Positions 1,827-39,579 of a DNA stretch of 39,579 bases are shown piece after piece. The stretch's first letter is position 1; each line of letters begins with the position of its first letter. Origin of the DNA: a virus. The stretch lies in the IMG/VR virus record IMGVR_UViG_3300005326_000030; one strand, given 5' to 3'. The notes beneath the pieces are model-generated. The model worked only from the letters and a program-made list of their open reading frames with translations. It had not been told where the DNA came from and searched no databases. The translations under genes were made by a program, and so were the position numbers.

Positions 1827-1865
1827 CAAAAAAACCTCTACGGTGTATTTCTACAATGATAGAGG
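1827..1865 (-). terminator. Intrinsic-terminator-like hairpin plus T7, preceded by TATAAT at 1879..1884
   Basis: Minus strand reads CCTCTA...TAGAGG (1835-1840 / 1860-1865), followed by seven T (plus-strand A-run 1828-1834). Confidence 0.6.
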
Positions 1866-1885
1866 CGTTGATTACTTTATTATAT

Positions 1886-1919
1886 TAAAAAAAATACCCC
1901 CTTATTTCTAAGAGGATAT
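1886..1919 (-). terminator. Strong intrinsic-terminator-like hairpin plus T8
   Basis: Minus strand reads ATATCCTCTTA-GAAA-TAAGGGGGTAT (about 11 bp including G-U pairs), followed by eight T (plus-strand A-run 1887-1894). Confidence 0.65.
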
Positions 1920-1998
1920 TTTAACTTGAGTATCAGTCTAGTCAATTAATTATATCATTTAATATCTAATTACTGGAGTTTAATTATTTAATAATTAA

Positions 1999-8886: not shown

Positions 8887-9765
8887 TTAAAAATTATTTA
8901 ATGCAAAAAGTAGATCGAACTTTGTGTCTGTGGCATTAAACATAAAGCCCATATATAAAGTCTTTCCTAATACCGTTGTAGTAGGTAAAGCTAAATCACT
9001 AGAAGCTCTAAATTCCGTATCATAAGTTAATGCTCTAGCTGTACCATCATCTTTGATTCTGACTATTAGTTTTTGTCCAGCAACAGCAGTTCCACCAGGA
9101 TTATTTAATTTTAATGCACCTGCTTGTGCTGTAACATCAAACTCATCACAAGTAGAAACATCTAAGGCTGTTCCTGTATCGGTTGTATAAGAAGCAGCCG
9201 TTACAATACGAGGATTAATTCTTTTATTAGTAAATGTAGTAGTCGAAGTAGGAGTAACTGTTAAACCAGCATCTTTTAAACCTTTAGGAGTAACGATTAG
9301 ATTATCAGCAGTTCCAGTGGTAATGTCTCCACTAGCAGCTTTAGCCGTACCAGTAAAAGAGGTATTAATTACTGGAGTAGTAAGAACTGTACTATCTTTA
9401 ATAGTTCCATCTTGGTTAAAAGCAACTAAGAAAGCATCTATAAGATCATTCCAATTATCAGCAGTAAATAGAATTTCAACTACTGTACCTGCTAACCAAG
9501 CCTGTGCTGTACCTTCAACACCTCTTAAACAATCAATGACATTAGTTCCTGAAATAACACCGACAACACCTTCAAAGTTTCCTGTAATCTTTCCTAAAGT
9601 ATCAACACGATTAATAGTTATCATTACAGCTGTATCAGTTGGAATACCAGAGACTGAACTTAATGGAATAGTAGTAACCGATCCATCATTAACACCACCT
9701 GAACCGATAACACCGCTCCATTGTGCTACCCCTTTTCTTAATTTATCTGAACTATTGGCTGAAAT
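8887..9765 (-). CDS. Fibre-like structural protein, 292 aa, probable ATT start
   Basis: The reading frame stays open 141 nt upstream of the first ATG (9624) with no ATG, GTG or TTG codon. AGGAGG lies 5 nt before the ATT at 9763-9765. The ATG at 9624 has no SD. Confidence 0.5.
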   Translation of the reverse strand: MSANSSDKLRKGVAQWSGVIGSGGVNDGSVTTIPLSSVSGIPTDTAVMITINRVDTLGKITGNFEGVVGVISGTNVIDCLRGVEGTAQAWLAGTVVEILFTADNWNDLIDAFLVAFNQDGTIKDSTVLTTPVINTSFTGTAKAASGDITTGTADNLIVTPKGLKDAGLTVTPTSTTTFTNKRINPRIVTAASYTTDTGTALDVSTCDEFDVTAQAGALKLNNPGGTAVAGQKLIVRIKDDGTARALTYDTEFRASSDLALPTTTVLGKTLYMGFMFNATDTKFDLLFALNNF

Positions 9766-17166: not shown

Positions 17167-18465
17167 CTATTTATAAGTTGATAAAAAGTCTGTTTCTTTC
17201 TTTTTCTGTGCATTGTAGAAACCAGTCATCCCACCACTATCAGCACCTTGAACATTATTTAATCCACCTATTTCATTAGCAGTAATAGTTTGTGGAGTAT
17301 ATTGTCCATAACCGCTAATTTTGGCTTTAGCATCATCAATAGTAGCCATTCTGTTTAATGCCCACTCTTGTATACCTTGATTCCAAGAAGTAATTTGGTC
17401 ATCAATCTGTTGGATTCTAGATAAAGCATTTTGAATTAACCCTGTTTCTGTAGCAGCCAAAGCAGCAGCTTTTTGACCAGTAGCAGTTAATTTAGCATTT
17501 CTAATTTGAATTAATTGATTATCAGCCCAATCTTGTATAGCACCTGTTTGTTCATTCTTCCAAGTGGCAAGTTTATTGAGTTGATCGTCATAAGTAGCTC
17601 TAATTTGTTGTTCTTGTCCTTGAATTTGAGCTAATTGAGAATTGGCTTGATTACTTACATCTGCACTTGATTGTCCAGCAGCTTTACTTAATGCAAAATT
17701 GTACATACGAGCAGCACTTGAATCACCAGCACCAGCACTACCTAATTGCATACCGCCTGCTTTAGACATTTGATTCATCTGTTGTTGTAAATCACGAATA
17801 GATTGAGCTTTACTAGCAGCAACTTGTCCTCTTGAAGTATCTAATGCCCCTAATGAACCTTGCATATTACCACTTAATTCAGTTTGTTGAGAACCATATA
17901 AGTTATTCAAAGTATTCATCTTATTAGCCTGTTGAGTTGGTATTAAACCAGCCATTTGATCTAGTTGTTGAAATACTGGATCATAAGCAGAATTAAAAGC
18001 ATTTCTTGAAGCATTTAAAGCATCAGAATAACCATTACCACCACCACTAAATTTAGAACCGCCACCTGCAGCAATATCTGCATTAATAGCAGCTAAATCA
18101 TTCCAACCAGCTGCTCTATATTTGTCAATTAAAGCAGAATTATCTGTACCACCAGTTCCACCAGTACCACCAGTACCACCTGTTCCACCTGTTCCACCAC
18201 TAGTTTTTTTTTGATTTATTATTTTTTGAGTATCAGCATATTCATTTTGTGTATTTTGTAAAGTTGAACCTAGACCACTTAATCCATTATCTTCAGCAGC
18301 ACTAACTGTTTTAACTATATTACCAAAAGGATCTTGATATTGTACTTTCCCACTTTCTGGATCGTAATAATAATTATTGATTTGATGTCCAGCAACACCA
18401 ACACCTGCATTTTTTGTTTCTAATAATGATTCTAATCCTGTTGTATTATTACTTTTTGGTGGCAT
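17167..18465 (-). CDS. Q/A/G-rich internal virion protein, 432 aa
   Basis: Start trimmed to MPPKSNN; the upstream MGGFLLFK codons are a translated hairpin. Contains (GGT)x6. Confidence 0.4.
   Translation of the reverse strand: MPPKSNNTTGLESLLETKNAGVGVAGHQINNYYYDPESGKVQYQDPFGNIVKTVSAAEDNGLSGLGSTLQNTQNEYADTQKIINQKKTSGGTGGTGGTGGTGGTGGTDNSALIDKYRAAGWNDLAAINADIAAGGGSKFSGGGNGYSDALNASRNAFNSAYDPVFQQLDQMAGLIPTQQANKMNTLNNLYGSQQTELSGNMQGSLGALDTSRGQVAASKAQSIRDLQQQMNQMSKAGGMQLGSAGAGDSSAARMYNFALSKAAGQSSADVSNQANSQLAQIQGQEQQIRATYDDQLNKLATWKNEQTGAIQDWADNQLIQIRNAKLTATGQKAAALAATETGLIQNALSRIQQIDDQITSWNQGIQEWALNRMATIDDAKAKISGYGQYTPQTITANEIGGLNNVQGADSGGMTGFYNAQKKKETDFLSTYK
18145..18198 (-). repeat. 9-bp tandem repeat x6 encoding (Gly-Gly-Thr)6
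   Basis: Minus strand reads GGT GGN ACN six times in a row. Confidence 0.85.
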
Positions 18466-18548
18466 ATTTTTGTGTTTAAATAATAAAAAACCTCCCATTT
18501 CAGGGAGGCATGGTCGTAAAGACCTTTTACTATGTTTATTATATCATT
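18466..18548 (-). promoter_or_regulatory. Late cassette copy C: TGATATAAT, 5 nt, TAGTAAAA, hairpin 1, hairpin 2, T-run
   Basis: TATAAT at 18539-18544. Hairpin 1 is GGTC-TTTAC-GACC. Hairpin 2 is CCTCCC-TGAAAT-GGGAGG followed by T6. Confidence 0.65.
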
Positions 18549-18555
18549 TAAATTT

Positions 18556-18772
18556 TATACTATCCACTTATTCTCTCCATGAAGTCTTATTTTGTCGTAT
18601 TTTGTAAGATGGGCAAAGACATAGGGAACATTATCATTGTACTGTGTACCGTTACATAACTTCATAAACACACCAAACATCTACAACGTCTTTTAATTTA
18701 TTAATAGCAGCAGTAAAACATTGTTTAAAATACGAGGCACGATTATAAGTAGTTATTCCAACTCCAATCATA
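18556..18772 (-). pseudogene. Decayed family-2 glycosyltransferase remnant
   Basis: MIGVGITTYNRASYFKQCFTAAINKL... (GT2 N-terminal signature) stops after 39 aa. It continues after a frame shift as NGTQYNDNVPYVFAHLTKYDKIRLHGENKWIV and then ends. Confidence 0.4.
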
Positions 18773-18834
18773 CCGTATTATATCAAATAAATATCACGTC
18801 TTTATTATCTACTAAATAACGATTAATTTAAAAC

Positions 18835-19755
18835 TTATACATTACTAACTCCACTTATTTTTTTAATCTGATTAGATGTCGTTAAATATTTAATTATTAC
18901 CAATCCACTTCCACCATTTTTACCATAATAATAAGCATCATTTGGATAAGAACCACCACCACCTCCACCTCCAGTATTAGCAGCTCCAGCAGTTCCATCT
19001 TGACTATTTGTAGCACCATTACCACCACCACCATAACCACCATAACCAAAAACAGTAGCACTACCACCACCACCACCAGAAACATAATAAGTACCACCAA
19101 CATTATGACCAGAACTAGCAGCAGCCAATAAAGCAGAATAAGCAGCAGTACCAACTCCACCATTTCCAGCAACTCTGTTTGAAGTATTATTCGCACCAAC
19201 AGCACCAGCTCCGCCTCCACCAGCACCACCATAATCATTTGTAGTTCCTCCATTATATCCTTGACTACCAGTTCCACCAGTGGCATAAGATAAACCTCCT
19301 GCTCCACCTCCACATCCACCATTACGGCCAGCACTACCACCTGAATTTGTACCACCTCCTCCTCCTCCTCCAATAGCAGTTAGTGTTCCAAATACTGAAT
19401 TTCCACCGTCTCCACCTTGACCAACACCAGATGTATGACCAGCACCGCCTCCGCCAACAGTAACAGTATAAGTTTGTTGAGTTAAATCAAAAGAGTTGTT
19501 ATAAGCTACACCTCCACCTCCACCTCCACCTCCAAAATAACGTCCACCACCTCCACCTCCACCAACAACTAAAATTTCCGCTTTCCCTGTCCCATAAACC
19601 ACTAAACTACTTGTTTCTGTAAATTTATGAATAGTATAATTACCACTGGTAATAACTGTTCCGCCAGTACAAAAGAAATAATTATTAGTTTTTCCACTAA
19701 CTTTTTTAATTGTGGTTCTTGTCTTTCCAAAAGTTTTTTTAATTGCTATTGCCAT
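18835..19755 (-). CDS. Glycine-rich domain protein (fibre/structural)
   Basis: VVGGGGGGGRYFGGGGGGGG...GGGGGGGSYP...GGSGLVIIKY. This is the typical viral glycine-rich domain layout. Confidence 0.6.
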   Translation of the reverse strand: MAIAIKKTFGKTRTTIKKVSGKTNNYFFCTGGTVITSGNYTIHKFTETSSLVVYGTGKAEILVVGGGGGGGRYFGGGGGGGGVAYNNSFDLTQQTYTVTVGGGGAGHTSGVGQGGDGGNSVFGTLTAIGGGGGGGTNSGGSAGRNGGCGGGAGGLSYATGGTGSQGYNGGTTNDYGGAGGGGAGAVGANNTSNRVAGNGGVGTAAYSALLAAASSGHNVGGTYYVSGGGGGSATVFGYGGYGGGGNGATNSQDGTAGAANTGGGGGGGSYPNDAYYYGKNGGSGLVIIKYLTTSNQIKKISGVSNV

Positions 19756-19757
19756 AT

Positions 19758-21431
19758 TTATACAAGTTCAATTTGAACAAGTTGAGGATTAAAATACATT
19801 CTATCTGCATGAGTAGCCACCCCCATAATTTGAACTACATCATCTGTTCCAGTTGGAGCAGTTTGGGAAAGTGTATTACCAGTTGTACCAGTTGTTGAAA
19901 GATAAATTAAACCACCAACTGTCCATGCCCAAGTATCATCTCTTGCGAACCCTAAAAGTAGATAATTCCCATCAGCATTAGCAGAAATAGTTGCGTCTGC
20001 ACACATGGCGACACATGAAGAAGTAGCAATAGCATCAGCATCTCCTAATTGTGCTTGACCATCAGCGTTGATAAAACATACATCTCCAAAAGCTTGGTTT
20101 TCATTAGCATTTAGTACACATTTATTACCACTAGCAGTGTGATCTGAAGCAGGAGAAGATGTCATAGTTAAATCACTTGAACTTGGTGGAGCAACCCACC
20201 TTAATCCAGTTGTTTCACTTGCTCTTGACTCTAATACATAACCATCTGTACCGACTGGTAAAACAGCAGGAGTATCATTAGCACTAGCAGAAATAATATC
20301 TCCTTTAGCAGCTACTAATGAATTAGATATTTTTCCATCAGTTACATCTTTTACAGCTTTACTTGTTGGAACAGTTGTATCATCGGCACCCAAAGAAGTA
20401 ACAATAGTTTTATCTGAAGTACGAATATCTTTATTAGTTAAATTAAAAACAACTATTTCTCCATCGGCTATTCCTGTTTCGTTTAAAGCAGTGATATTGG
20501 TAGTCTTAGATATTTTAGTATCTGCATATTCTTTTGTAAGTCTATTAGTTGGATATTTGGTAGTTGAAGTATCAAGTGTTGTATTTTCTTTATTAGCGAC
20601 ATCTTCTTTTGAAGAAGCAAGTCCAGAGTATTGAGTATTGGTAGCATTATCACCTGAATTAGTTCCAGAAGTATTACTTAATATAGTTCCTTCGGCAGTT
20701 GTAATTAAACGACTACCAGCGACTTTATCAACTTTATCTCCTAGGGCAGTTAAACCAGCCAATCCACCAGCAGGAATAGCAACTCCATCTTTTAAAGTTT
20801 TAGAATTAGCACCCGACCATTGAGGTAGATAATCAGCAGTATTTGAAGCAGGACCTAAGACATCACCTGTACCAGCACCGGCAGTACCTTGTTCACCTTT
20901 ATATTTTTTCCATAATCCAGTAAAATCTGAGGCAACTGGTGAAGCAATAGCAGTAGTAGTATTCTTAACAGCAATATAATCTAATAAAGCACTAAAAGTT
21001 AATGTAAATCCTGTCCCTGTATCATCTGAAGCATAAGCAATATAAACATAAGCATCGTCTCCATCAGTACCATTAGTTCCATTTGTCCCATTAGTTCCAG
21101 CGTCTCCTTTATCCCCTTTATCTCCTTTTTCTCCTTGTATACCCTGAATACCTTGATCTCCTTTTGCTCCAGTTAGACCAGTATCTCCCTTATCACCCTT
21201 TGTTCCTTGAATACCTTGTATTCCTTGATCTCCTTTATCACCTTTAGAACCAGTATCACCCTTTGCACCGATTGGTCCTTGATCTTTAATAAAAGCCTTT
21301 ATTACTACATCAGGAGCAGTTACTGATTTTACTGATCCAGTAACAGCATTGACTCTGATATTACCACTAGACTCTACATTGGCCTTAATAGTATTACCAT
21401 TTACAATGTTCGCTAATATTAGTGTACTCAT
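19758..21431 (-). CDS. Collagen-like tail fibre protein
   Basis: 25 uninterrupted G-X-Y triplets (aa 52-126), followed by a long Thr/Ser-rich shaft and a globular C-terminus. Confidence 0.75.
   Translation of the reverse strand: MSTLILANIVNGNTIKANVESSGNIRVNAVTGSVKSVTAPDVVIKAFIKDQGPIGAKGDTGSKGDKGDQGIQGIQGTKGDKGDTGLTGAKGDQGIQGIQGEKGDKGDKGDAGTNGTNGTNGTDGDDAYVYIAYASDDTGTGFTLTFSALLDYIAVKNTTTAIASPVASDFTGLWKKYKGEQGTAGAGTGDVLGPASNTADYLPQWSGANSKTLKDGVAIPAGGLAGLTALGDKVDKVAGSRLITTAEGTILSNTSGTNSGDNATNTQYSGLASSKEDVANKENTTLDTSTTKYPTNRLTKEYADTKISKTTNITALNETGIADGEIVVFNLTNKDIRTSDKTIVTSLGADDTTVPTSKAVKDVTDGKISNSLVAAKGDIISASANDTPAVLPVGTDGYVLESRASETTGLRWVAPPSSSDLTMTSSPASDHTASGNKCVLNANENQAFGDVCFINADGQAQLGDADAIATSSCVAMCADATISANADGNYLLLGFARDDTWAWTVGGLIYLSTTGTTGNTLSQTAPTGTDDVVQIMGVATHADRMYFNPQLVQIELV
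21054..21278 (-). repeat. Collagen triple-helix repeat region (25 G-X-Y)
   Basis: GPIGAKGDTGSKGDKGDQGIQGIQGTKGDKGDTGLTGAKGDQGIQGIQGEKGDKGDKGDAGTNGTNGTNGTDGDD. Confidence 0.9.
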
Positions 21432-21435
21432 ATAT

Positions 21436-21798
21436 TTATGATGTTCTTCTTGTAATATCGCCAGAAATTCTTAGTTTTCGTGCAGGAATTGAAACTATTG
21501 CACCGGAACTTTTTTTAACTTGAATATCATAAAAATAATCCCCTGGTTCACAATCAGTATCACTTGCAGATAATGGGATAGTTGTTTTACCTTGAGTAGG
21601 ATCAGTTAAATCACCTGCAGCAACTTCAACTTCCATTACAGCAGTCGCATCAGTGGCTTCATTAGCAACGGTTGGTTTGGCAGTCAGAAAAACAGTAGCT
21701 CCGGTAATATCTACTGGAACCCCATCTTCTGTTAATTGAAAATCAATAGAACTTGTATCACCTCTAATTAAAAATATATCTGGTCTTGTTGTAGCCAT
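21436..21798 (-). CDS. Ig-like / BppU-N-like small structural protein, 120 aa
   Basis: Start trimmed to MATTRPD. The pattern of alternating beta-strand-like segments (GDTSSIDFQLTEDGVPVDITGATVFLTAK) is Ig-like. Confidence 0.35.
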   Translation of the reverse strand: MATTRPDIFLIRGDTSSIDFQLTEDGVPVDITGATVFLTAKPTVANEATDATAVMEVEVAAGDLTDPTQGKTTIPLSASDTDCEPGDYFYDIQVKKSSGAIVSIPARKLRISGDITRRTS

Positions 21799-21876
21799 TT
21801 TAAATTTAAATAATAAAAAACCTCCCAAACAAGGGAGGTATGCCTGTAAAAGGCTTTTACTATATTTATTATACCA
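21799..21876 (-). promoter_or_regulatory. Late cassette copy B: TGGTATAAT, 5 nt, TAGTAAAA, hairpin 1, hairpin 2, T-run
   Basis: TATAAT at 21868-21873. Hairpin 1 is GCCT-TTTAC-AGGC. Hairpin 2 is CCTCCC-TTGTTT-GGGAGG followed by T6. Confidence 0.65.
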
Positions 21877-23412: not shown

Positions 23413-24108
23413 TTATACCAATTTTTGAGTAAGTTTAATAAATCTATCTAATTGTTTTTTATGGTTCTTATTATATTTAGAATATTTTTTATCATAATCC
23501 TCTTTCTTTAATTCAATATTTTCTGGTACTACTATTACTCTACACCCACAAAGCATAGCTTCATATATTAATTGAGTATCATCATCATAGGTATAGACTA
23601 TTCTAGTATTTTTAAGTAGATCAGCATAAGCCCAACGACTAGGACAATCTATTATTTCTCTCAATTCTTCAACCATTGGAACTCTTGGTTTCTTCCAACC
23701 TTTATTACGATAGAAGCAATCAAACTTATCATTAGTTCCTTTAGTAAATAGTTCTGGTTCTATAGTATTAACTGTTAATAGTGGTTTGTCTAAGTATTTT
23801 TTATACCAACTAAATTGCAACCCATCTTTAAATGGTTCACCACCTAAGAACCCTGGCTTATTTAATGCCCATCTAACGACTTTGTGGATACCTACTGGAT
23901 TACCAGCTATAATCTCAGGATAAACAACAATAAAGTCCTCTGTAATTTTTTCTTTAGTTATGAGTGGTTCGTTCCACAATGGATTAGGGGTTGAAGTACA
24001 ATATGCCTCGTATCCTCTTTCGTTAAGATCGTGGACAAGTTTGTGTAGGACTCTTACTCCATTAGAGTTGTCTCTGTAAATTGGTGTAACTACTACGTAT
24101 GGACTCAT
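23413..24108 (-). CDS. Putative compact glycosyltransferase-like protein, 231 aa
   Basis: ATGA-coupled to the transketolase C-subunit gene. C-terminal IYEAMLCGCRVIVVP resembles the GT-B EA..G.PV motif. Confidence 0.3.
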   Translation of the reverse strand: MSPYVVVTPIYRDNSNGVRVLHKLVHDLNERGYEAYCTSTPNPLWNEPLITKEKITEDFIVVYPEIIAGNPVGIHKVVRWALNKPGFLGGEPFKDGLQFSWYKKYLDKPLLTVNTIEPELFTKGTNDKFDCFYRNKGWKKPRVPMVEELREIIDCPSRWAYADLLKNTRIVYTYDDDTQLIYEAMLCGCRVIVVPENIELKKEDYDKKYSKYNKNHKKQLDRFIKLTQKLV

Positions 24109-24611
24109 TTGGTTAGACTAATGAATACTGGTTTGTTATTGTTTATTATAGTGTGTAATAGTTTCTCAATATCTTCTTTATCATCTGGGAAATAAGAAGT
24201 TATATTTGGAAAACATTTTAAAACCTGTTTACAGTCCTCTGATTGGTGAGTATAACCATCGTTTTCGTAAGTTTTATCTCTCCCAGCACCTAGGATCTTA
24301 ACTGGTATCTGTTCATAGTCTACATAGTTTCTAACCCACTCAAAAGTTCTATATAAAGAAAAATTAGTTATTGAATAAAAGAAAGGTATCTTACCTTCTA
24401 AAGCAAGTCCTATACATAATCCCATACCAGCCTGTTCTGCTGCACCACAGTTTATACATCTATCAGGAAAGTCCTCTATAATAGCGTCCCATTGTTTGTA
24501 ACCCAAATCTGCATAAACTAACCATATATCCTTATTGGCTTCCATTTCTTTGTGTAAGTAATAGGCTAAATACCCTCTCATTGAGTCGTGTGGTTTATTG
24601 AAGTTTGGCAT
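24105..24611 (-). CDS. Transketolase-like pyrimidine-binding subunit, truncated form, 168 aa
   Basis: ADLGYKQWDAIIEDFPDRCINCGAAEQAGMGLCIGLALEGKIPFFYSITNF matches the transketolase Pyr-domain pattern. The usual C-terminal domain is absent. Confidence 0.65.
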   Translation of the reverse strand: MPNFNKPHDSMRGYLAYYLHKEMEANKDIWLVYADLGYKQWDAIIEDFPDRCINCGAAEQAGMGLCIGLALEGKIPFFYSITNFSLYRTFEWVRNYVDYEQIPVKILGAGRDKTYENDGYTHQSEDCKQVLKCFPNITSYFPDDKEDIEKLLHTIINNNKPVFISLTK

Positions 24612-25206
24612 AGGTTTCTAAGTCTAAACAATTATAATGTCCGGGTATTCCTTTAAGTATCTCAGGACATCTGTATAAGGTTACTCTTGATACTACAACA
24701 TTAAAAAATGATTTAAGTCTACTTTCCAAGTAATCTATGTCTACTAATCCACAGGCACTTTGTCCATTAGCAACTACTACAACTTTTAGATTATTTAATT
24801 CTTGATCGTGAGCTATTTTAAGTGCTTCCCATATAGAACCCTCAGCACAAGCACCATCTGAAGTAACTAAATAGACATCTCTGTCTCTATTAGCCAAAGC
24901 CATACCAACTGCAATAGTTTCTGGTTGTCCTAGTGAGCCACCACTAACATAAACTCCGTGTTCTAAGTCTCTAAAAGCGTGTGTTCCATATTTATCTACC
25001 ATTTCTTCTGCGTTGCAAATTCCTCTATCTTCCAATACTACCCATAGAGCTAGTGCAGCATGGGAGTTACCCAATACAAATATATCATCTTGTTTCTTAA
25101 GCTGGTAAATCTTATCTATAATTGGCAAAGTAGTTAATACACTGCTTAGATGAGTAAGTTTTCTTGGATAACTAATATCAAAGACTCTCTTTTCTAATTT
25201 GGTCAT
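24595..25206 (-). CDS. Transketolase-like thiamine-diphosphate-binding subunit, 203 aa
   Basis: GNSHAALALW..., GGSLGQPETIAVGMALA and YLVTSDGACAEGSIWEAL match the transketolase N-subunit pattern GSLGQG / GDG..EG..WEA. Confidence 0.65.
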   Translation of the reverse strand: MTKLEKRVFDISYPRKLTHLSSVLTTLPIIDKIYQLKKQDDIFVLGNSHAALALWVVLEDRGICNAEEMVDKYGTHAFRDLEHGVYVSGGSLGQPETIAVGMALANRDRDVYLVTSDGACAEGSIWEALKIAHDQELNNLKVVVVANGQSACGLVDIDYLESRLKSFFNVVVSRVTLYRCPEILKGIPGHYNCLDLETYAKLQ

Positions 25207-25951
25207 AAGATTCCTCTATACTTTCAATTAATGATTTCTTTGGCAACCAACCCCAACTCCTAGCTTTAAAGTTAGTACATACCCAATTAGGAGTGTCATA
25301 TTTTCTTAATTGAGGTACTCTGGTAACCTTTAATTTTTTCTGAGTAATAAACTCTACTATTTCTAAAATTTTTTCATTAGTTGTGCTAACTCCACTCCCT
25401 AGTTCAAAAATACCTTTAGCTTGATTATCAGAGAGATTTAATATCCCACTAACGACATCAGAAACATCAATATAGTCATGACTACCATCACATAAGTTTA
25501 CAGGAGTATCATTGATTGCAGCCCTTATTAGAGTAGGAATTAAGTGTTTTGGACTATCACCAGCACCGCATATCGTATATGGCCTAATTATAGTTATTGG
25601 TAAGTGTAATTTTTCTAAATAACCCATCAAAATCTCCTCACTTGCCTTCTTAGTCCTTGAATACATGGTCTGGACTGGAAGTTTTACTGACGAAGTTGAT
25701 ATATAAACAAAGGATTTGAAATTTAAGTCTTTTACTTTGTTAATTATTGAGATTAGGTCTAGTAAATTAGCCTTTATGATTAAATCGTCGTCTGTGTGGT
25801 CGCTAATGTTGCCATAGGCAGAGCAAAATAGGAATTTATTAAAATTTTTAGGCTTAAAAGTATCTATTTCTTCATGAGGAATACAAACTGCGTCAATATT
25901 TTTTAGTAATTCTTGACCGAGAAAACCTGATCCCCCAGTTAAGTAGTTCAT
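25178..25951 (-). CDS. NAD-dependent sugar epimerase/dehydratase (SDR family)
   Basis: Rossmann motif TGGSGFLG at the N-terminus and catalytic YxxxK (YSRTK). Confidence 0.7.
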   Translation of the reverse strand: MNYLTGGSGFLGQELLKNIDAVCIPHEEIDTFKPKNFNKFLFCSAYGNISDHTDDDLIIKANLLDLISIINKVKDLNFKSFVYISTSSVKLPVQTMYSRTKKASEEILMGYLEKLHLPITIIRPYTICGAGDSPKHLIPTLIRAAINDTPVNLCDGSHDYIDVSDVVSGILNLSDNQAKGIFELGSGVSTTNEKILEIVEFITQKKLKVTRVPQLRKYDTPNWVCTNFKARSWGWLPKKSLIESIEESYDQIRKESL

Positions 25952-27042
25952 AAGTCTACAAATTTAACATCTAAAGATTTAATAACATTTAGAAAAGTTT
26001 TAGAAACTTCTTTAAGGTCTCTATTTTTCTTTACCCATTTAAAAGCATTGTCGGCAATACGTTTTCTTTCTTGTGGATTATCGATTAGATACTTAACTTG
26101 TTTGTAAAAATCATTGGTATAAAGTAACCCATTATCATTATGTTTAATATCAGCCGAGTAAGGAAGCATATTTTTAGCAACAGTAGGAATACCTAAAGCA
26201 GCCGTTTCATAATACTTGATAGAACTCTTATTAGTATTGAATTCATTATCTTCTAAAGGACAGATAGCAATATCAGCATTGATTGTAGCCAATCTATATC
26301 CATGTCCATCTGCTGTGATCCAACCGTCTTTGTGGACTCTTGATTGGTCCATGTCTTTAGTTATACCTTCAAAAGGATTACCGAGGATATATAAGTGTAG
26401 ATTAGGATATTCTTTCATTAATCTTTCTAAATCGTCTCTTATTGAAAACATATCTCCATAGTGGGAACTACCACCAGACCAAAGTAAACGAATCTTATCA
26501 TCTTTCTTAATATCTAATCTAGGAAATATATCAAGATTTACAGCATTTGGGACAACAACTACATTTTTATTAAAAGGTTTAATAGTATCAGCTAGTTTAC
26601 TTGTAGTAGTTGTAACTACATTTGCTTTAGTAAGACAGTATTCGTAGTCTATTAAAGCTCTACGATTACGATATGGATCAAAGTGTTTATCTTCTACCCA
26701 TAGAGGTTTTCCATCTGGTAAGTAAACTTCTTTTGTACCACCAAATGAATAAGCATCACTAAAAGGACTAATATTAAATAAGTCATCATCAGTATCAAAG
26801 ATTATTTTCTTTTTTGGATAGTATTCTTTAATCTCTCTAATAAATTGAGTTACATTTTTAGTTGAAGGTCTTAAATAAAAAACATCAGAATCTTTAATTG
26901 CTTCCATTATATCTTTCTCACTCCAAGTATCTATATCAACTTCCTTTATCTCTACTTCGTTAGATATTGCTTTAGTTATCTGCATTATGCGATACCAACT
27001 ACAACCATCAATTCTATGCTTATGGACAAATAGTTTCATCAT
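25948..27042 (-). CDS. GT-B fold (GT4-like) glycosyltransferase, 364 aa
   Basis: EFNTNKSSIKYYETAALGIPTVA...NGLL matches the E..(7)E/GT1 C-terminal motif. Start set at the ATG that overlaps the upstream stop (ATGA). Confidence 0.65.
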   Translation of the reverse strand: MMKLFVHKHRIDGCSWYRIMQITKAISNEVEIKEVDIDTWSEKDIMEAIKDSDVFYLRPSTKNVTQFIREIKEYYPKKKIIFDTDDDLFNISPFSDAYSFGGTKEVYLPDGKPLWVEDKHFDPYRNRRALIDYEYCLTKANVVTTTTSKLADTIKPFNKNVVVVPNAVNLDIFPRLDIKKDDKIRLLWSGGSSHYGDMFSIRDDLERLMKEYPNLHLYILGNPFEGITKDMDQSRVHKDGWITADGHGYRLATINADIAICPLEDNEFNTNKSSIKYYETAALGIPTVAKNMLPYSADIKHNDNGLLYTNDFYKQVKYLIDNPQERKRIADNAFKWVKKNRDLKEVSKTFLNVIKSLDVKFVDL

Positions 27043-27350
27043 ATATTTCGTGTGTCTCCTTTGACTACCTTCCACTCTTTATAATGTTCAAAAAAATCTT
27101 TATCTTTAAAATAATCTGGTCCATACATCTTAGTAAACCACTCATCTACTTCAATGGGGATAGTTGCTATTTTAATCCAGTGTGCTTTACCAGTACGTTT
27201 ATGTCCTGCAAGATATTGTTCCTTTCGTAGAGATTGTTGAATAACACCTTTTGGATCAGTGGCTTGTTTTATTCCTAATTCTTTATTTTTATTAACACTA
27301 TCAATAACTTTATTGATTACTTTTAGTTCTTCTGTATTAAATGTAGCCAT
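27039..27350 (-). CDS. Hypothetical protein, 103 aa, downstream of the capsid gene
   Basis: ORF with its own promoter-like element. Confidence 0.5.
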   Translation of the reverse strand: MATFNTEELKVINKVIDSVNKNKELGIKQATDPKGVIQQSLRKEQYLAGHKRTGKAHWIKIATIPIEVDEWFTKMYGPDYFKDKDFFEHYKEWKVVKGDTRNI

Positions 27351-29775: not shown

Positions 29776-31713
29776 TTATCTCCCTCCTAATAATGATTGA
29801 GCGATCTGTTGTAATTCAGGATCTTTTATATTTCCCATGATCTGTGCAGAATCTACACCCTGTCCATTACCAGGCATCATAGATTGTTCTTGAGATGGTT
29901 GAACTGGTTGTCCTTGTCCTTGCATTTCAGGTGGTATTCTCTGTGGTGTTTGTCCTTGAATTGGTTGACCATCTGGACCTGCTTGTACTTGTGGTGGTTC
30001 TGGTTTAAAGTCAACAACTATTTTATCTGAATCTTTAGTACCCGAAGTAATGATGTATCGTTTAACTAATTCAGAGAAGTCAATATCTTTTCCTTTAGTT
30101 TGCATCATTTGTAATAGAGTTGAACCAAATGGAGTTCCAAATAATTGAATTATTGCAGTTAGTGATTGATTTTCTTCCATAGCATCTTTTTGTAATGTAG
30201 TTCCGGCATCAATAAAGAATCTAAACTTACCTTTAAGCATTTCCGGTTTGATTCTGTACTTACCTTCACCATTTTGTGAGTATATTTCTTCAATATCGGG
30301 ATAGATTTCTTTAATTTGTTCAATTTCACCACTAAATAAGTTAATATCAATTGGTTTAGCTTGATTAGAAGCAATCATTTCAATCATTCGATCATAAAGT
30401 TCCTCTACAAAGTCTTCCATTGTCTGTCTTTCCCATGAATCAGCGGCACTTTCCTTCATCTGTTGCATTTTAAGGGCTTGTGGAGTCTTGCCTTGAGTCA
30501 TATCTACATTCTTAGACACACTCATATCAGTAGAACCCAATAAGTTGTTTAAAGAACTTAGAATCATACCCGATAAGTTATTAGCAGTGTTAATATCTTC
30601 ATTCCCATTAACTAAAGGACGGATAGAGTTAGGGATTGTTTCTTCCCATATAGCACCAGCCCTACGATTTAAAGTATTTTTAACTACACCTTTAGGATTT
30701 ACAACTGTAATAGGGAATAATTTATTCTTTGCACTATCAAGAGTTAAGTTGATAATAGAGTTTTGAGTAAGTTGAAGTGGTTTACCTCTTTCAGTATCAG
30801 ACCAACCAGTACATCTATCTAACATTGGAACTGTTTGTTTGATGATGATTGGAAGTTTACCATTTTGATGTGGGTTATCTATTTCTCTAAGTATTCCTGC
30901 TTGTGGGAACTTAGGAGCATAAGTAATCCAACTATCACGAGTGTATTTAGTTCTAATAAGTACACCTTCTAAATCAACATTGTATTTGGCTTCATTATAA
31001 GATTGATTGACATAGGTTATCTTTTCCTTTTGTTCTTTAACTGCTTTGACTAAGATATCAATATTCTTCCAAGTAGATTTAGGTAAGTGTTTAAGCCAAC
31101 CTAATGGTTGTAATTGGTCTACAAAACAATAGTCTTGGTCATCATCTTGGAATACTCCTGGTTGTGGATAGTATCTATCAATAGGAATAAGCCAAAAGTC
31201 AGGGCCAACATAAGTATCTGATACAACATAATCAACTAAAACAGGTTGTTTCCCATATATCTGAGAATTAATAGAAGTTAGTTTCAACTTCATTAAGTGT
31301 TTATATTGGGAATTAGAATTAGGAATAATATATCTTTGGAGAATTAGATTTAGTAATTGGTTCTTACCTCTGTCTTTACGATCTAAGTAATCAACTTTAC
31401 CAGTAGCAGGTTGAGCTGTTATTCTTTGAGTTCTTTGGATAATAGCAGTAGACAAGTGTCCATCATTAACATTTGATTTACTATTCTCAGCAGCTTTACC
31501 TTTGTCTTGATTATAGAATACTTCTTCATTCTCACGCCATTCTGGTCTGATTATATTCAACGCACTATCGCAATATTGCCATTCACTTTCCATTTTAGTT
31601 ATCAACTCATCTTCTGTTTCTGTTTTCTTAGGTTTTGTATCCTTAAACAAATCAACTGTATTATCTTTCTTAACTTCCTTAACTGTTTTCTTTTTCTTTA
31701 ATTTTTTAGGCAT
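29776..31713 (-). CDS. Portal protein, 645 aa
   Basis: Called on size and on position after TerL. Start trimmed to MPKKLKKKK; the upstream codons lie inside cassette A hairpins. The C-terminal tail is Q/P/G-rich. Confidence 0.6.
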   Translation of the reverse strand: MPKKLKKKKTVKEVKKDNTVDLFKDTKPKKTETEDELITKMESEWQYCDSALNIIRPEWRENEEVFYNQDKGKAAENSKSNVNDGHLSTAIIQRTQRITAQPATGKVDYLDRKDRGKNQLLNLILQRYIIPNSNSQYKHLMKLKLTSINSQIYGKQPVLVDYVVSDTYVGPDFWLIPIDRYYPQPGVFQDDDQDYCFVDQLQPLGWLKHLPKSTWKNIDILVKAVKEQKEKITYVNQSYNEAKYNVDLEGVLIRTKYTRDSWITYAPKFPQAGILREIDNPHQNGKLPIIIKQTVPMLDRCTGWSDTERGKPLQLTQNSIINLTLDSAKNKLFPITVVNPKGVVKNTLNRRAGAIWEETIPNSIRPLVNGNEDINTANNLSGMILSSLNNLLGSTDMSVSKNVDMTQGKTPQALKMQQMKESAADSWERQTMEDFVEELYDRMIEMIASNQAKPIDINLFSGEIEQIKEIYPDIEEIYSQNGEGKYRIKPEMLKGKFRFFIDAGTTLQKDAMEENQSLTAIIQLFGTPFGSTLLQMMQTKGKDIDFSELVKRYIITSGTKDSDKIVVDFKPEPPQVQAGPDGQPIQGQTPQRIPPEMQGQGQPVQPSQEQSMMPGNGQGVDSAQIMGNIKDPELQQIAQSLLGGR

Positions 31714-31787
31714 AGTTTTTAAACAAAAAAAAGCTCTCACTTCTGAGAGCATTCCCGTACAGGGATTTTACTAATTACATTATATCA
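31714..31787 (-). promoter_or_regulatory. Late cassette copy A: TGATATAAT, 5 nt, TAGTAAAA, hairpin 1, hairpin 2, T-run
   Basis: TATAAT at 31779-31784. Hairpin 1 is TCCC-TGTAC-GGGA. Hairpin 2 is GCTCTCA-GAAG-TGAGAGC followed by T8. Confidence 0.65.
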
Positions 31788-32105
31788 TGGTTGTTTGTCT
31801 AGTGGATATTGTTTCTTAATATTCCTTTGTAGATAAACATCTTTTATATTACCTTTATTAAATTTCATAGTAAAAGTAAACATTCCAGACTCTTGTTTAG
31901 TAAATAAATCTTTTATTTCACTTAATACTAATGAAGTTGCTTCTGTATTCTCTCCATCTTTAAACTTTACTCTTTGAAATTGTTGTCCTTGGACTCCAAC
32001 TATCTTATCTTGGAATATCTCTAAAGTTAAATTAAGACTACCATAGTGTTGGGTATTGCATTGTTTCTCTATATCTATAAAAGGAATTAGATTAAGTGTT
32101 TCCAT
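31785..32105 (-). CDS. Hypothetical protein, 106 aa
   Basis: ORF whose start overlaps the TerL stop. Confidence 0.5.
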   Translation of the reverse strand: METLNLIPFIDIEKQCNTQHYGSLNLTLEIFQDKIVGVQGQQFQRVKFKDGENTEATSLVLSEIKDLFTKQESGMFTFTMKFNKGNIKDVYLQRNIKKQYPLDKQP

Positions 32106-33778: not shown

Positions 33779-34000
33779 TTAATAACTTCTTCTACCACTT
33801 GGTTCGTCAATACTTATAATTGGACCAAATTTTAGTTTTTCACAATGATTACATCGTCTTAACATTCCATACTCATTTACTTTTGCCGGATTCTTTTCAC
33901 ATATAAGACATAGAACAATACCTTTACTATTTACTTTAGCTCTACTTATTTCTGATTCGTTTAAATCTTTAATTGTTGGCATATTTGAATATAAATCCAT
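33779..34000 (-). CDS. Small zinc-ribbon protein
   Basis: CLICEKN...CNHCEK. The start may instead be M7 at 33982. Confidence 0.45.
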   Translation of the reverse strand: MDLYSNMPTIKDLNESEISRAKVNSKGIVLCLICEKNPAKVNEYGMLRRCNHCEKLKFGPIISIDEPSGRRSY

Positions 34001-39384: not shown

Positions 39385-39564
39385 TTAATTATTAATTTGT
39401 TTATTTTCTAAATGTTTAAGTTGATGTTGTAGTTTAAAAATTGCAACTGATAAATAGGCACTTTTTGATTTGTCAAAAAAATCTGAAGATAATGCCATAT
39501 TTCTATCATAAATTTCTTGACAGGCTTTAGTAACTTCTATTATTTCTTTTTTTGTTAATTTCAT
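39385..39564 (-). CDS. Junction-spanning hypothetical ORF, 59 aa
   Basis: Hand translation gives MKLTKKEIIEVTKACQEIYDRNMALSSDFFDKSKSAYLSVAIFKLQHQLKHLENKQINN. Its first 108 nt are also present at 1..108. Confidence 0.45.
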   Translation of the reverse strand: MKLTKKEIIEVTKACQEIYDRNMALSSDFFDKSKSAYLSVAIFKLQHQLKHLENKQINN

Positions 39565-39579
39565 AATTAGAATTTATAA
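39457..39579. repeat. Terminal direct repeat copy 2, identical to 1..123
   Basis: Base-for-base identity with 1-123. Confidence 0.95.

Follow-up and report, generated by a model that had tools for sequence, protein, structure and literature searches.

Why would a phage place an intrinsic terminator immediately behind the promoters of its late genes? The question is raised by four minus-strand intergenic cassettes, numbered c1 to c4 here, in the virus record IMGVR_UViG_3300005326_000030, the whole analysed stretch of which (39,579 nucleotides) is called the window; c2 is the copy found at 21799-21876. An earlier note on this DNA had claimed that the four share one architecture, and all four copies read as claimed, almost base for base: TGnTATAAT, exactly 5 nt, TAGTAAA(A), hairpin 1 (4-5 bp), AU, hairpin 2 (7 bp, GC-rich) and T5-8, with the start codon 11-22 nt 3' of the U-run. 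The answer that we favour, tentatively and at slightly less than an even chance, is that each cassette is a promoter-proximal terminator gating a late operon, with a default RNA of about 47 nt and a leader RNA that directs read-through. The late genes would probably need a factor for read-through of the terminator.

How distinctive is this arrangement? The exact pattern TATAATN5TAGTAAA matches c1 to c4 only in the window, where about 0.03 chance matches are estimated from base composition, and a covariance model built from close copies of the cassette finds exactly the same four sites, each at E ≤ 2e-9. With 7 bp stems containing 4-5 GC pairs and followed by T5-8, all four have the sequence of an intrinsic terminator. 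Consensus scans place c1 to c4 among just a handful of terminator-like sites in the window, and a stringent scan of the whole genome returns five strong minus-strand terminators, four of which are c1 to c4; at all five, TGnTATAAT begins 33-37 nt upstream of the stem. The terminator hairpin begins about 23 nt after the predicted transcription start, and hairpin 1 lies 2 nt upstream of it. The c3 cassette is a near-identical paralogue of c2, from which it differs in three compensatory pair swaps in hairpin 1 and in the loop of hairpin 2, and the extended -10 of c1 takes its TG from the TGA stop of the preceding gene, which encodes a protein of 106 amino acids (aa).

Where would transcription start? 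The sequence TGNTATAAT occurs at 11 sites in the window, all on the coding strand and all adjoining gene starts, and all 11 have the sequence of an extended -10 promoter of the sigma-70 type (TGnTATAAT, with a start 6-8 nt downstream). At four of them (33771, 23420, 18785 and 6733, minus strand) an ATG follows 5-7 nt downstream, in the form TATAAT-N5-7-ATG, and these promoters apparently give leaderless mRNAs; the genes of this type include the endolysin gene and a 139-aa gene that heads the large-terminase operon. Because these four sites place the ATG there, TGnTATAAT can be taken as a working promoter with a start 6-8 nt downstream, and the same spacing therefore puts the +1 of the cassettes at the A of TAG (31772, 21861, 18531 and 9833 in c1 to c4), so that TAG within TAGTAAA probably marks the transcription start. 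TGnTATAAT is not specific to late genes; with 11 occurrences, and serving leaderless and other genes too, it is the general promoter form of this phage. It is what follows the promoter that distinguishes the cassettes.

When the RNA that runs from the predicted start through the U-run (46-48 nt) is folded with RNAfold, the two-hairpin fold is obtained for all four copies, at -15.4 to -18.7 kcal/mol. Covariation was assessed in eight close copies, the four of the window and two each from the related loci L008 (91% portal identity) and L223 (85% identity in the 106-aa protein whose gene directly precedes that of the portal). Parsed manually, hairpin 1 pairs in 32 of 32 cells and hairpin 2 in 56 of 56, 88 of 88 for both stems together, all as standard pairs, of which as many as four types occur at one position, and only a fraction of 0.0002 of all permutations of the 3' arms reaches the same pairing. 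The covariation claimed for the stems was thus upheld in the window and in its close relatives, and the structure appears to be selected at the RNA level. Two alternative pairings, one joining the 5' GUAAA to the hairpin-1 loop UUUAC and the other AGUAAAA to the U-tail, were rejected, being neither conserved across copies nor present in the minimum-energy folds.

The layout extends well beyond this genome. Relatives collected through the portal protein amount to 86 non-redundant related loci (1.06 Mb), and among 84 distinct regions upstream of the portal gene, 42 have a strict terminator ending ≤60 nt from the start, with several more visible by eye. For 55 of the 96 coding-strand terminators in the 86 loci there is a promoter-like site upstream, its -10 ending 10-80 nt away (median 32), against a chance expectation of 3.2%; the reverse order, terminator and then promoter, occurs at 3 of the 96, and on the other strand of the same loci 3 of 44 terminators have a promoter-like site. 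In a control set of 105 unrelated viral loci the figure is 5/61 (8.2%), against 7.8% by chance. The ATG of an ORF (open reading frame) lies within 120 nt downstream in 54 of the 55 modules and ≤30 nt from the stem end in 51, at a median of 14 nt. The short leader contains a hairpin in 93% of the modules (mean z -1.8), ending a median of 2 nt upstream of the terminator stem; the terminators have a median free energy of -13 kcal/mol and U5-9, and the predicted short RNAs have a median length of 57 nt (range 40-79 nt). The promoter-before-terminator layout is typical of this clade of uncultured podophages; the order appears to be selected clade-wide, and the modules appear to act as 5' leaders. 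Taken together, the order bias, the tight spacing and the conservation in the clade argue that transcripts from these promoters are meant to meet the terminator.

The promoters themselves vary among the relatives, many of which carry full TTGACA-17-TAnnnT promoters. In L001 (9040-9075) and L011 (9910-9935 and 17860-17885), every module has a perfect TTGACA just 7-8 nt upstream of a -10-like hexamer, a non-canonical spacing that hints at promoters being recognised in another way. In L009 one gene product, of 118 aa, consists of sigma-70 region 4 only.

The leader motifs can be compared genome by genome. The window, L008 and L223 have TAGTAAAA in common, and in the copies ahead of the portal genes of L008 and L223 the motif is instead TATTAAAGCAAAA and TATTAGCAAAA, of the form TATTA(AA)GCAAAA; TAGTAAA, which had been called invariant, is therefore a lineage-specific motif. 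In L118 both modules have GTAGCAAAT, and in L192 both have GC(U/G)GC-AUAUG-GC(A/C)GC, with one compensatory change. Such sharing within genomes and difference between genomes is as expected of a specific factor that would co-evolve with its leader. A scan of IMG/VR for TATAATN5TAGTAAAN{30,40}T6 gave 105 single matches, seven of them with a terminator-like fold and none with two hairpins, so that the module in its exact form is limited to this lineage.

How might such a cassette work? A promoter feeding straight into an intrinsic terminator ahead of the late genes is the most economical reading of these data. Polymerase would start at the A of TAG and transcribe AGUAAAA, both hairpins and the AU between them; on reaching the U-run it would, by default, release its transcript of about 47 nt. 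Hairpin 2 would also stop polymerases arriving from the upstream operon, and since it would halt both these and the promoter-derived polymerases, the late block would be silent unless the terminator were overcome. Read-through would be conditional and directed by the leader RNA, that is, by its A-rich 5' end and hairpin 1; hairpin 1 would sit at the mouth of the RNA exit channel at the moment when the terminator hairpin must fold, and a phage-specific factor on the leader could then keep the terminator from folding or act by altering the polymerase. A module stands ahead of every late block, so that the action is possibly local to each terminator. An RNA element is favoured because the stem covaries, its sequence is genome-specific and it lies 2 nt from the terminator. 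Two secondary roles are likely: in the read-through mRNA the two 5' hairpins could stabilise the message, and the U-rich stretch by the start codon could serve as a ribosome landing site in a genome mostly free of Shine-Dalgarno sequences.

Several points weigh against conditional, leader-directed read-through. The start site, the termination and the regulation at the cassettes are all predicted from sequence. The conserved spacing between the U-run and the ATG means that the hairpin could be selected mainly for translation or RNA stability. The pairing figure of 100% depends on the manual parse and not on an automated alignment: in a covariance-model-guided alignment 68% of the cells are paired, which beats all 500 shuffles and includes register errors from differing loop lengths, and the same alignment slid by -1 scores about equally. 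The loops of hairpin 1 differ among the close copies (UGUAC, UUUAC, UUUAAA, AUCA, AUAC and UUCA), which sits awkwardly with sequence-specific loop recognition, and the 5' motif of the portal copy in L008 and L223 is unlike that of the second copy in the same genome. Finally, a search of most ORFs of the complete genome with Pfam and PHROGs, including all early ORFs ≥65 aa, found no antiterminator and no RNA polymerase, sigma factor, Q, N or NusG-like match, and a highly divergent Q could escape such scans.

The serious rival, a reading that we find doubtful, is that the cassettes are constitutive and leaky insulators. Hairpin 2 would then be a partly efficient terminator of the upstream operon, strong promoters would offset the loss, and neither a factor nor a temporal switch would be involved; the hairpin and U-run would have been placed by the start codon to stabilise the 5' end, to insulate it from RNA structure further upstream and to offer ribosomes a U-rich landing pad. 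This would explain why the ATG is so close to the stem end (≤30 nt in 51/55), often directly behind the U-run, and it fits a window in which most genes have no Shine-Dalgarno sequence, no factor was found by Pfam or PHROGs, the hairpin-1 loops are not conserved, and the same -10 form drives leaderless genes including the endolysin gene, so that promoter type alone sets no timing. However, terminators as strong as these look would waste most initiations, the 55:3 order bias is hard to explain unless transcripts from the promoters are meant to meet the terminator, and leader motifs shared within but not between genomes are not needed for either stability or translation.

If, as we prefer, read-through is conditional, what would the factor be? 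In the most specific version, which is unlikely as a whole, virion production would be timed by local antitermination of a previously undescribed kind: a small phage protein would read a miniature nut-like leader, made up of the A-rich 5' end and the 4-5 bp hairpin, no more than about 25 nt from the start and disable the terminator 2 nt further on, separately for each late operon, with the U-run doubling as a ribosome site. The protein would possibly be a 67-aa zinc ribbon. When all early proteins of the window were compared with the relatives by tblastn, no conserved regulator was found; the early proteins are not conserved, and the only matches were the zinc ribbon and the 139-aa protein adjoining the large terminase gene. 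The genomes with clear relatives of the zinc ribbon, L223 and L008, are those that share the TAGTAAAA-type leader, and the family is narrow, with 17 clusters in 1.84 billion proteins. A fold search with its model (predicted local distance difference test, pLDDT, 72) gave generic RING and zinc-finger matches only, at E > 1, and the protein is a weak candidate for a trans-acting factor, a lead rather than a finding.

Two other proteins were considered and set aside. The 106-aa protein (31785-32105) lies directly upstream of c1, a position that is conserved in the relatives, and was rejected as a positional analogue of Q: its AlphaFold model has a pLDDT of 64.5, with no sequence or fold match in the PDB. 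Comparison of this protein and the zinc ribbon with solved structures found no similarity for either. The 1512-aa virion protein was rejected as a phage RNA polymerase, having no polymerase domain and only an HNH/EndoVII-like stretch, and the promoters are sigma-70-like. A query of IMG/VR with the single capsid protein gave no match.

Could the short RNAs themselves be the product? Under this reading, which is very unlikely, the cassettes would be small-RNA genes, with RNAs of 46-48 nt here and 40-79 nt in the clade that share an AGUAAAA seed at the 5' end, fold into two hairpins and end in a U tail. They would act in trans, with targets in the host or the phage, and read-through would be secondary. 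In having a single-stranded 5' end followed by hairpins and a terminator, the cassette RNAs do resemble small RNAs of bacteria, and there are precedents: the short terminated RNA from PR' of Stx phage is a functional small RNA (PMC7547250), and abundant short RNAs derived from 5' untranslated regions (UTRs) are known in Pseudomonas phages (PMC10914365). But an ATG within 120 nt in 54 of 55 modules means that the downstream gene belongs to the design, the supposed seed varies within L008 and within L223, and no target was found, although no search aimed at one was made.

Two further promoter-then-terminator units, units 5 and 6, which were absent from the earlier note, also bear on the short-RNA reading. 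They stand in tandem on the minus strand, between the first early gene (1999-2226), which they follow closely, and the remaining early genes. Neither has TAGTAAA or hairpin 1, and unit 5 is unmatched by the covariance model. With no gene directly behind unit 5, they look like pure small-RNA genes, and they may encode small RNAs of about 50-60 nt or form a checkpoint of the early operon.

Antitermination of the Q type, in which a DNA-binding Q-like protein would load on a sigma-paused polymerase at TAGTAAA and carry it past hairpin 2, is highly improbable. The promoter-then-terminator logic is present, as is a conserved element at +1 to +7, but no Q-family antiterminator was found in most ORFs of the complete genome by Pfam and PHROGs. 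The 60 nt upstream of the four extended -10s (about -75 to -16) share no 6-9 nt word above the shuffled expectation, as a Q-binding DNA element would require, and a -10-like TAnnnT occurs in the first 30 transcribed nt of only two of the four leaders, at +3 in c1 and +7 in c4, so that there is no conserved sigma-dependent pause element. The role in sigma-dependent pausing or antiterminator loading that had been proposed for TAGTAAA is not supported, TAGTAA being without the critical sixth T, and the covarying stem of hairpin 1 speaks for an element that acts as RNA and not as DNA. Equally improbable is a put-like RNA, in which the leader alone would make its polymerase resist hairpin 2 without a protein: there is structured nascent RNA directly upstream of the terminator and no protein factor was found, but the 73 nt of put form two long stem-loops and a triplex (PMC9378689), against about 22 nt and a 4-5 bp stem here, polymerases coming from upstream would make this leader too and so pass hairpin 2 as well, leaving the terminator without a purpose, and Rfam gave no match over the whole window at gathering scores or even at E ≤ 1.

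Features of the window and related loci discussed in the text, with their positions
Feature	Position	Strand	Description
c1, whole module	31787-31725	minus	upstream of portal gene 29776-31713, ATG at 31713
c1, 5' part			TGATATAAT, GTAAT, TAGTAAAA
c1, hairpins			hairpin 1 TCCC/GGGA, loop TGTAC; AT; hairpin 2 GCTCTCA/TGAGAGC; T8; 11 nt to ATG
c2, whole module	21876-21815	minus	16 nt from T-run to ATG at 21798
c2, extended -10 promoter	21868..21876	minus	TGGTATAAT, followed by AAATA
c2, start motif	21855..21862	minus	TAGTAAAA; predicted start at A of TAG, giving single-stranded A-rich 5' end AGUAAAA
c2, hairpin 1	21842..21854	minus	GCCU-UUUAC-AGGC; RNAfold and covariation
c2, linker	21840-21841	minus	AU between hairpins
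c2, hairpin 2 and U-run	21815..21839	minus	ACCUCCC/GGGAGGU, intrinsic-terminator-like; fold, terminator scans and covariation
First gene behind c2	21436..21798	minus	120-aa protein, phrog_1084
Next gene behind c2	19758-21431	minus	collagen-like tail fibre gene
c3, whole module	18546-18485	minus	hairpin 1 GGTC/GACC; hairpin 2 GCCTCCC/GGGAGGT; 19 nt to ATG at 18465
Genes behind c3	17167-18465	minus	432-aa gene (position given), then 1512-aa gene
c4, whole module	9848-9788	minus	TAGTAAA; hairpin 1 TACC(T)/(A)GGTA; hairpin 2 ACCCGTC/GGCGGGT
Gene behind c4	8887-9765	minus	292-aa ORF; ATT start at 9765, 22 nt on, after AGGAGG; frame open
Zinc-ribbon protein	33779..34000	minus	CxxC-N15-CxxC, 67-73 aa; clear relatives in L223 and L008, weak match in L001
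Unit 5	1885..1957	minus	TGATATAAT, 26 nt, 12-14 bp hairpin, T8; next element is unit 6, not a gene
Unit 6 (weaker)	1828..1884	minus	TATAAT, 12 nt, GCCTCTA...TAGAGG, T7; upstream of early genes (1553-1753 onward)
Portal relatives in CPR assemblies			loci L121, L125, L130, L133, L135-L138

What kind of genome carries these cassettes? The ends of the window overlap exactly over 123 nt (1-123 = 39457-39579), so that it is a genome of about 39,456 bp that is either complete and circularly assembled or terminally redundant, and a second, independent contig of 39,250 nt is identical to it across 16.7 kb. A near-identity search with 16.5 kb of the window against GenBank phages gave no match. The genome is podophage-like, with nearly every gene on the minus strand; by Pfam and PHROGs the gene set comprises an SU10-type capsid and portal, a large terminase, a CHAP endolysin and an ERF recombinase, with sugar-modification genes within the structural block. 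The Shine-Dalgarno sequence is missing upstream of most genes. Relatives of the portal come from metagenomes of sludge, groundwater and freshwater, and those in genome assemblies fall mostly in bins of Patescibacteria (candidate phyla radiation, CPR), among them contigs of 64, 82 and 500 kb; CPR bacteria are plausible hosts for at least part of the clade.

The cassettes and promoters also mark places where gene content changes. A block of inserted fibre genes, Ig-like, collagen-like and glycine-rich (18466-21876), is bracketed by c2 and c3, and the 3' end of the 231-aa gene together with the promoter at 23420 is common to the window and L008 (12060-12100), with different genes following. Because of these two arrangements, the promoter modules look like mosaic recombination joints.

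Three other regions of the window deserve mention. Between the capsid genes and the downstream virion genes, 23413-27075 encodes a glycosyltransferase, an NAD-dependent epimerase and a split transketolase-like pair; these sugar genes are kept in many relatives, which suggests modification of virion or host-surface glycans. On the minus strand at 18660-18790, directly downstream of a leaderless-type promoter, a 39-aa ORF consists of only the N-terminal motif (GITTYNR) of a family-2 glycosyltransferase and looks like a gene remnant. An ORF-free and GC-richer stretch of about 400 nt at 2340-2745, between divergent gene blocks, has very strong RNA folding (z = -7.0 for the plus and -4.3 for the minus strand) and matches neither Rfam nor a tRNA. 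It may encode a structured non-coding RNA, form a long 5' UTR or serve as an origin region.

If the cassettes are conditional terminators, a promoter, a sensor hairpin, a terminator and a translation start would be combined in one compact regulatory part of about 60 nt. An uncultured phage clade would then time its late genes with the host polymerase alone, using no recognisable Q, N, sigma factor or phage polymerase, and this would constitute a new mechanistic class of phage antitermination. It would also account for promoter-proximal terminators that have been seen but not understood in phage transcriptomes, offer a signature by which late operons could be predicted from the sequences of metagenomic phage genomes, and yield parts small and portable enough for synthetic biology. 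If they are only leaky insulators, the clade would still follow an unusual rule, promoter before terminator and terminator abutting the start codon, and this rule bears on the expression of genes that have no Shine-Dalgarno sequence.

How does the cassette compare with known antitermination systems? In lambda, PR' is constitutive and its transcription is terminated immediately downstream until Q acts (PMC7547250). The earlier note had read the cassettes by this PR'-qut-tR' logic, and the part that stands is the promoter feeding into a terminator, which the order bias (55/96 against 3/96) supports and for which c1 to c4 have the intrinsic terminator between promoter and late genes; membership in the Q/qut class is not supported. 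The likeness to the lambdoid arrangement lies in a constitutive host-type promoter, a close intrinsic terminator, a short RNA by default and late genes that would need read-through. In contrast to the single module of lambda there are four per genome here, and a covarying RNA hairpin lies 2 nt from the terminator. The lambda terminator ends at +194, and the one here at about +47.

The HK022 put element is a V-shaped RNA that binds the zinc-binding domain of the beta' subunit (PMC9378689). It is reminiscent of the cassette leader in being a nascent structured RNA near a promoter that could act on the transcribing polymerase. The two-hairpin resemblance drawn in the earlier note is superficial, since the leader has one hairpin ahead of the terminator, and what was counted as the second is in fact the terminator. 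In form, N/nut of lambda comes closest; it likewise combines a short single-stranded motif and a small hairpin in nascent RNA, of phage-specific sequence and upstream of terminators. The lambda nut site loads a processive complex once per early operon that acts over kilobases, whereas the element here recurs before each operon, abuts its terminator and has loops that vary among copies. The single-stranded AGUAAAA and the covarying hairpin are present, a boxA consensus was not found in the leader, and the search for an N-like protein gave no family match in Pfam or PHROGs and no arginine-rich N-terminus among the small early proteins that were read.

Phage P23-45 combines extended -10 late promoters with the antiterminator gp39 (PMC3351154). 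Both gp39 and the Xp10 protein p7 resemble the present case in pairing extended -10 late promoters that have no -35 with the host polymerase and read-through of intrinsic terminators, but those factors need no leader RNA element, and many relatives in this clade depart from the extended -10 form with their full TTGACA promoters. By analogy with gp39, a small unrecognisable protein could do the read-through job. In six Pseudomonas phages, ONT-cappable-seq located 42 terminators immediately downstream of promoters, with both short and read-through transcripts (PMC10914365). Those sites are scattered and unrelated, extend up to 250 nt and form no defined module, unlike the compact, repeated and clade-conserved module described here with its fixed geometry of hairpin, linker, terminator and ATG. 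Promoter-proximal termination in phages is already known; what is new is the compact module, repeated within the genome and conserved across the clade.

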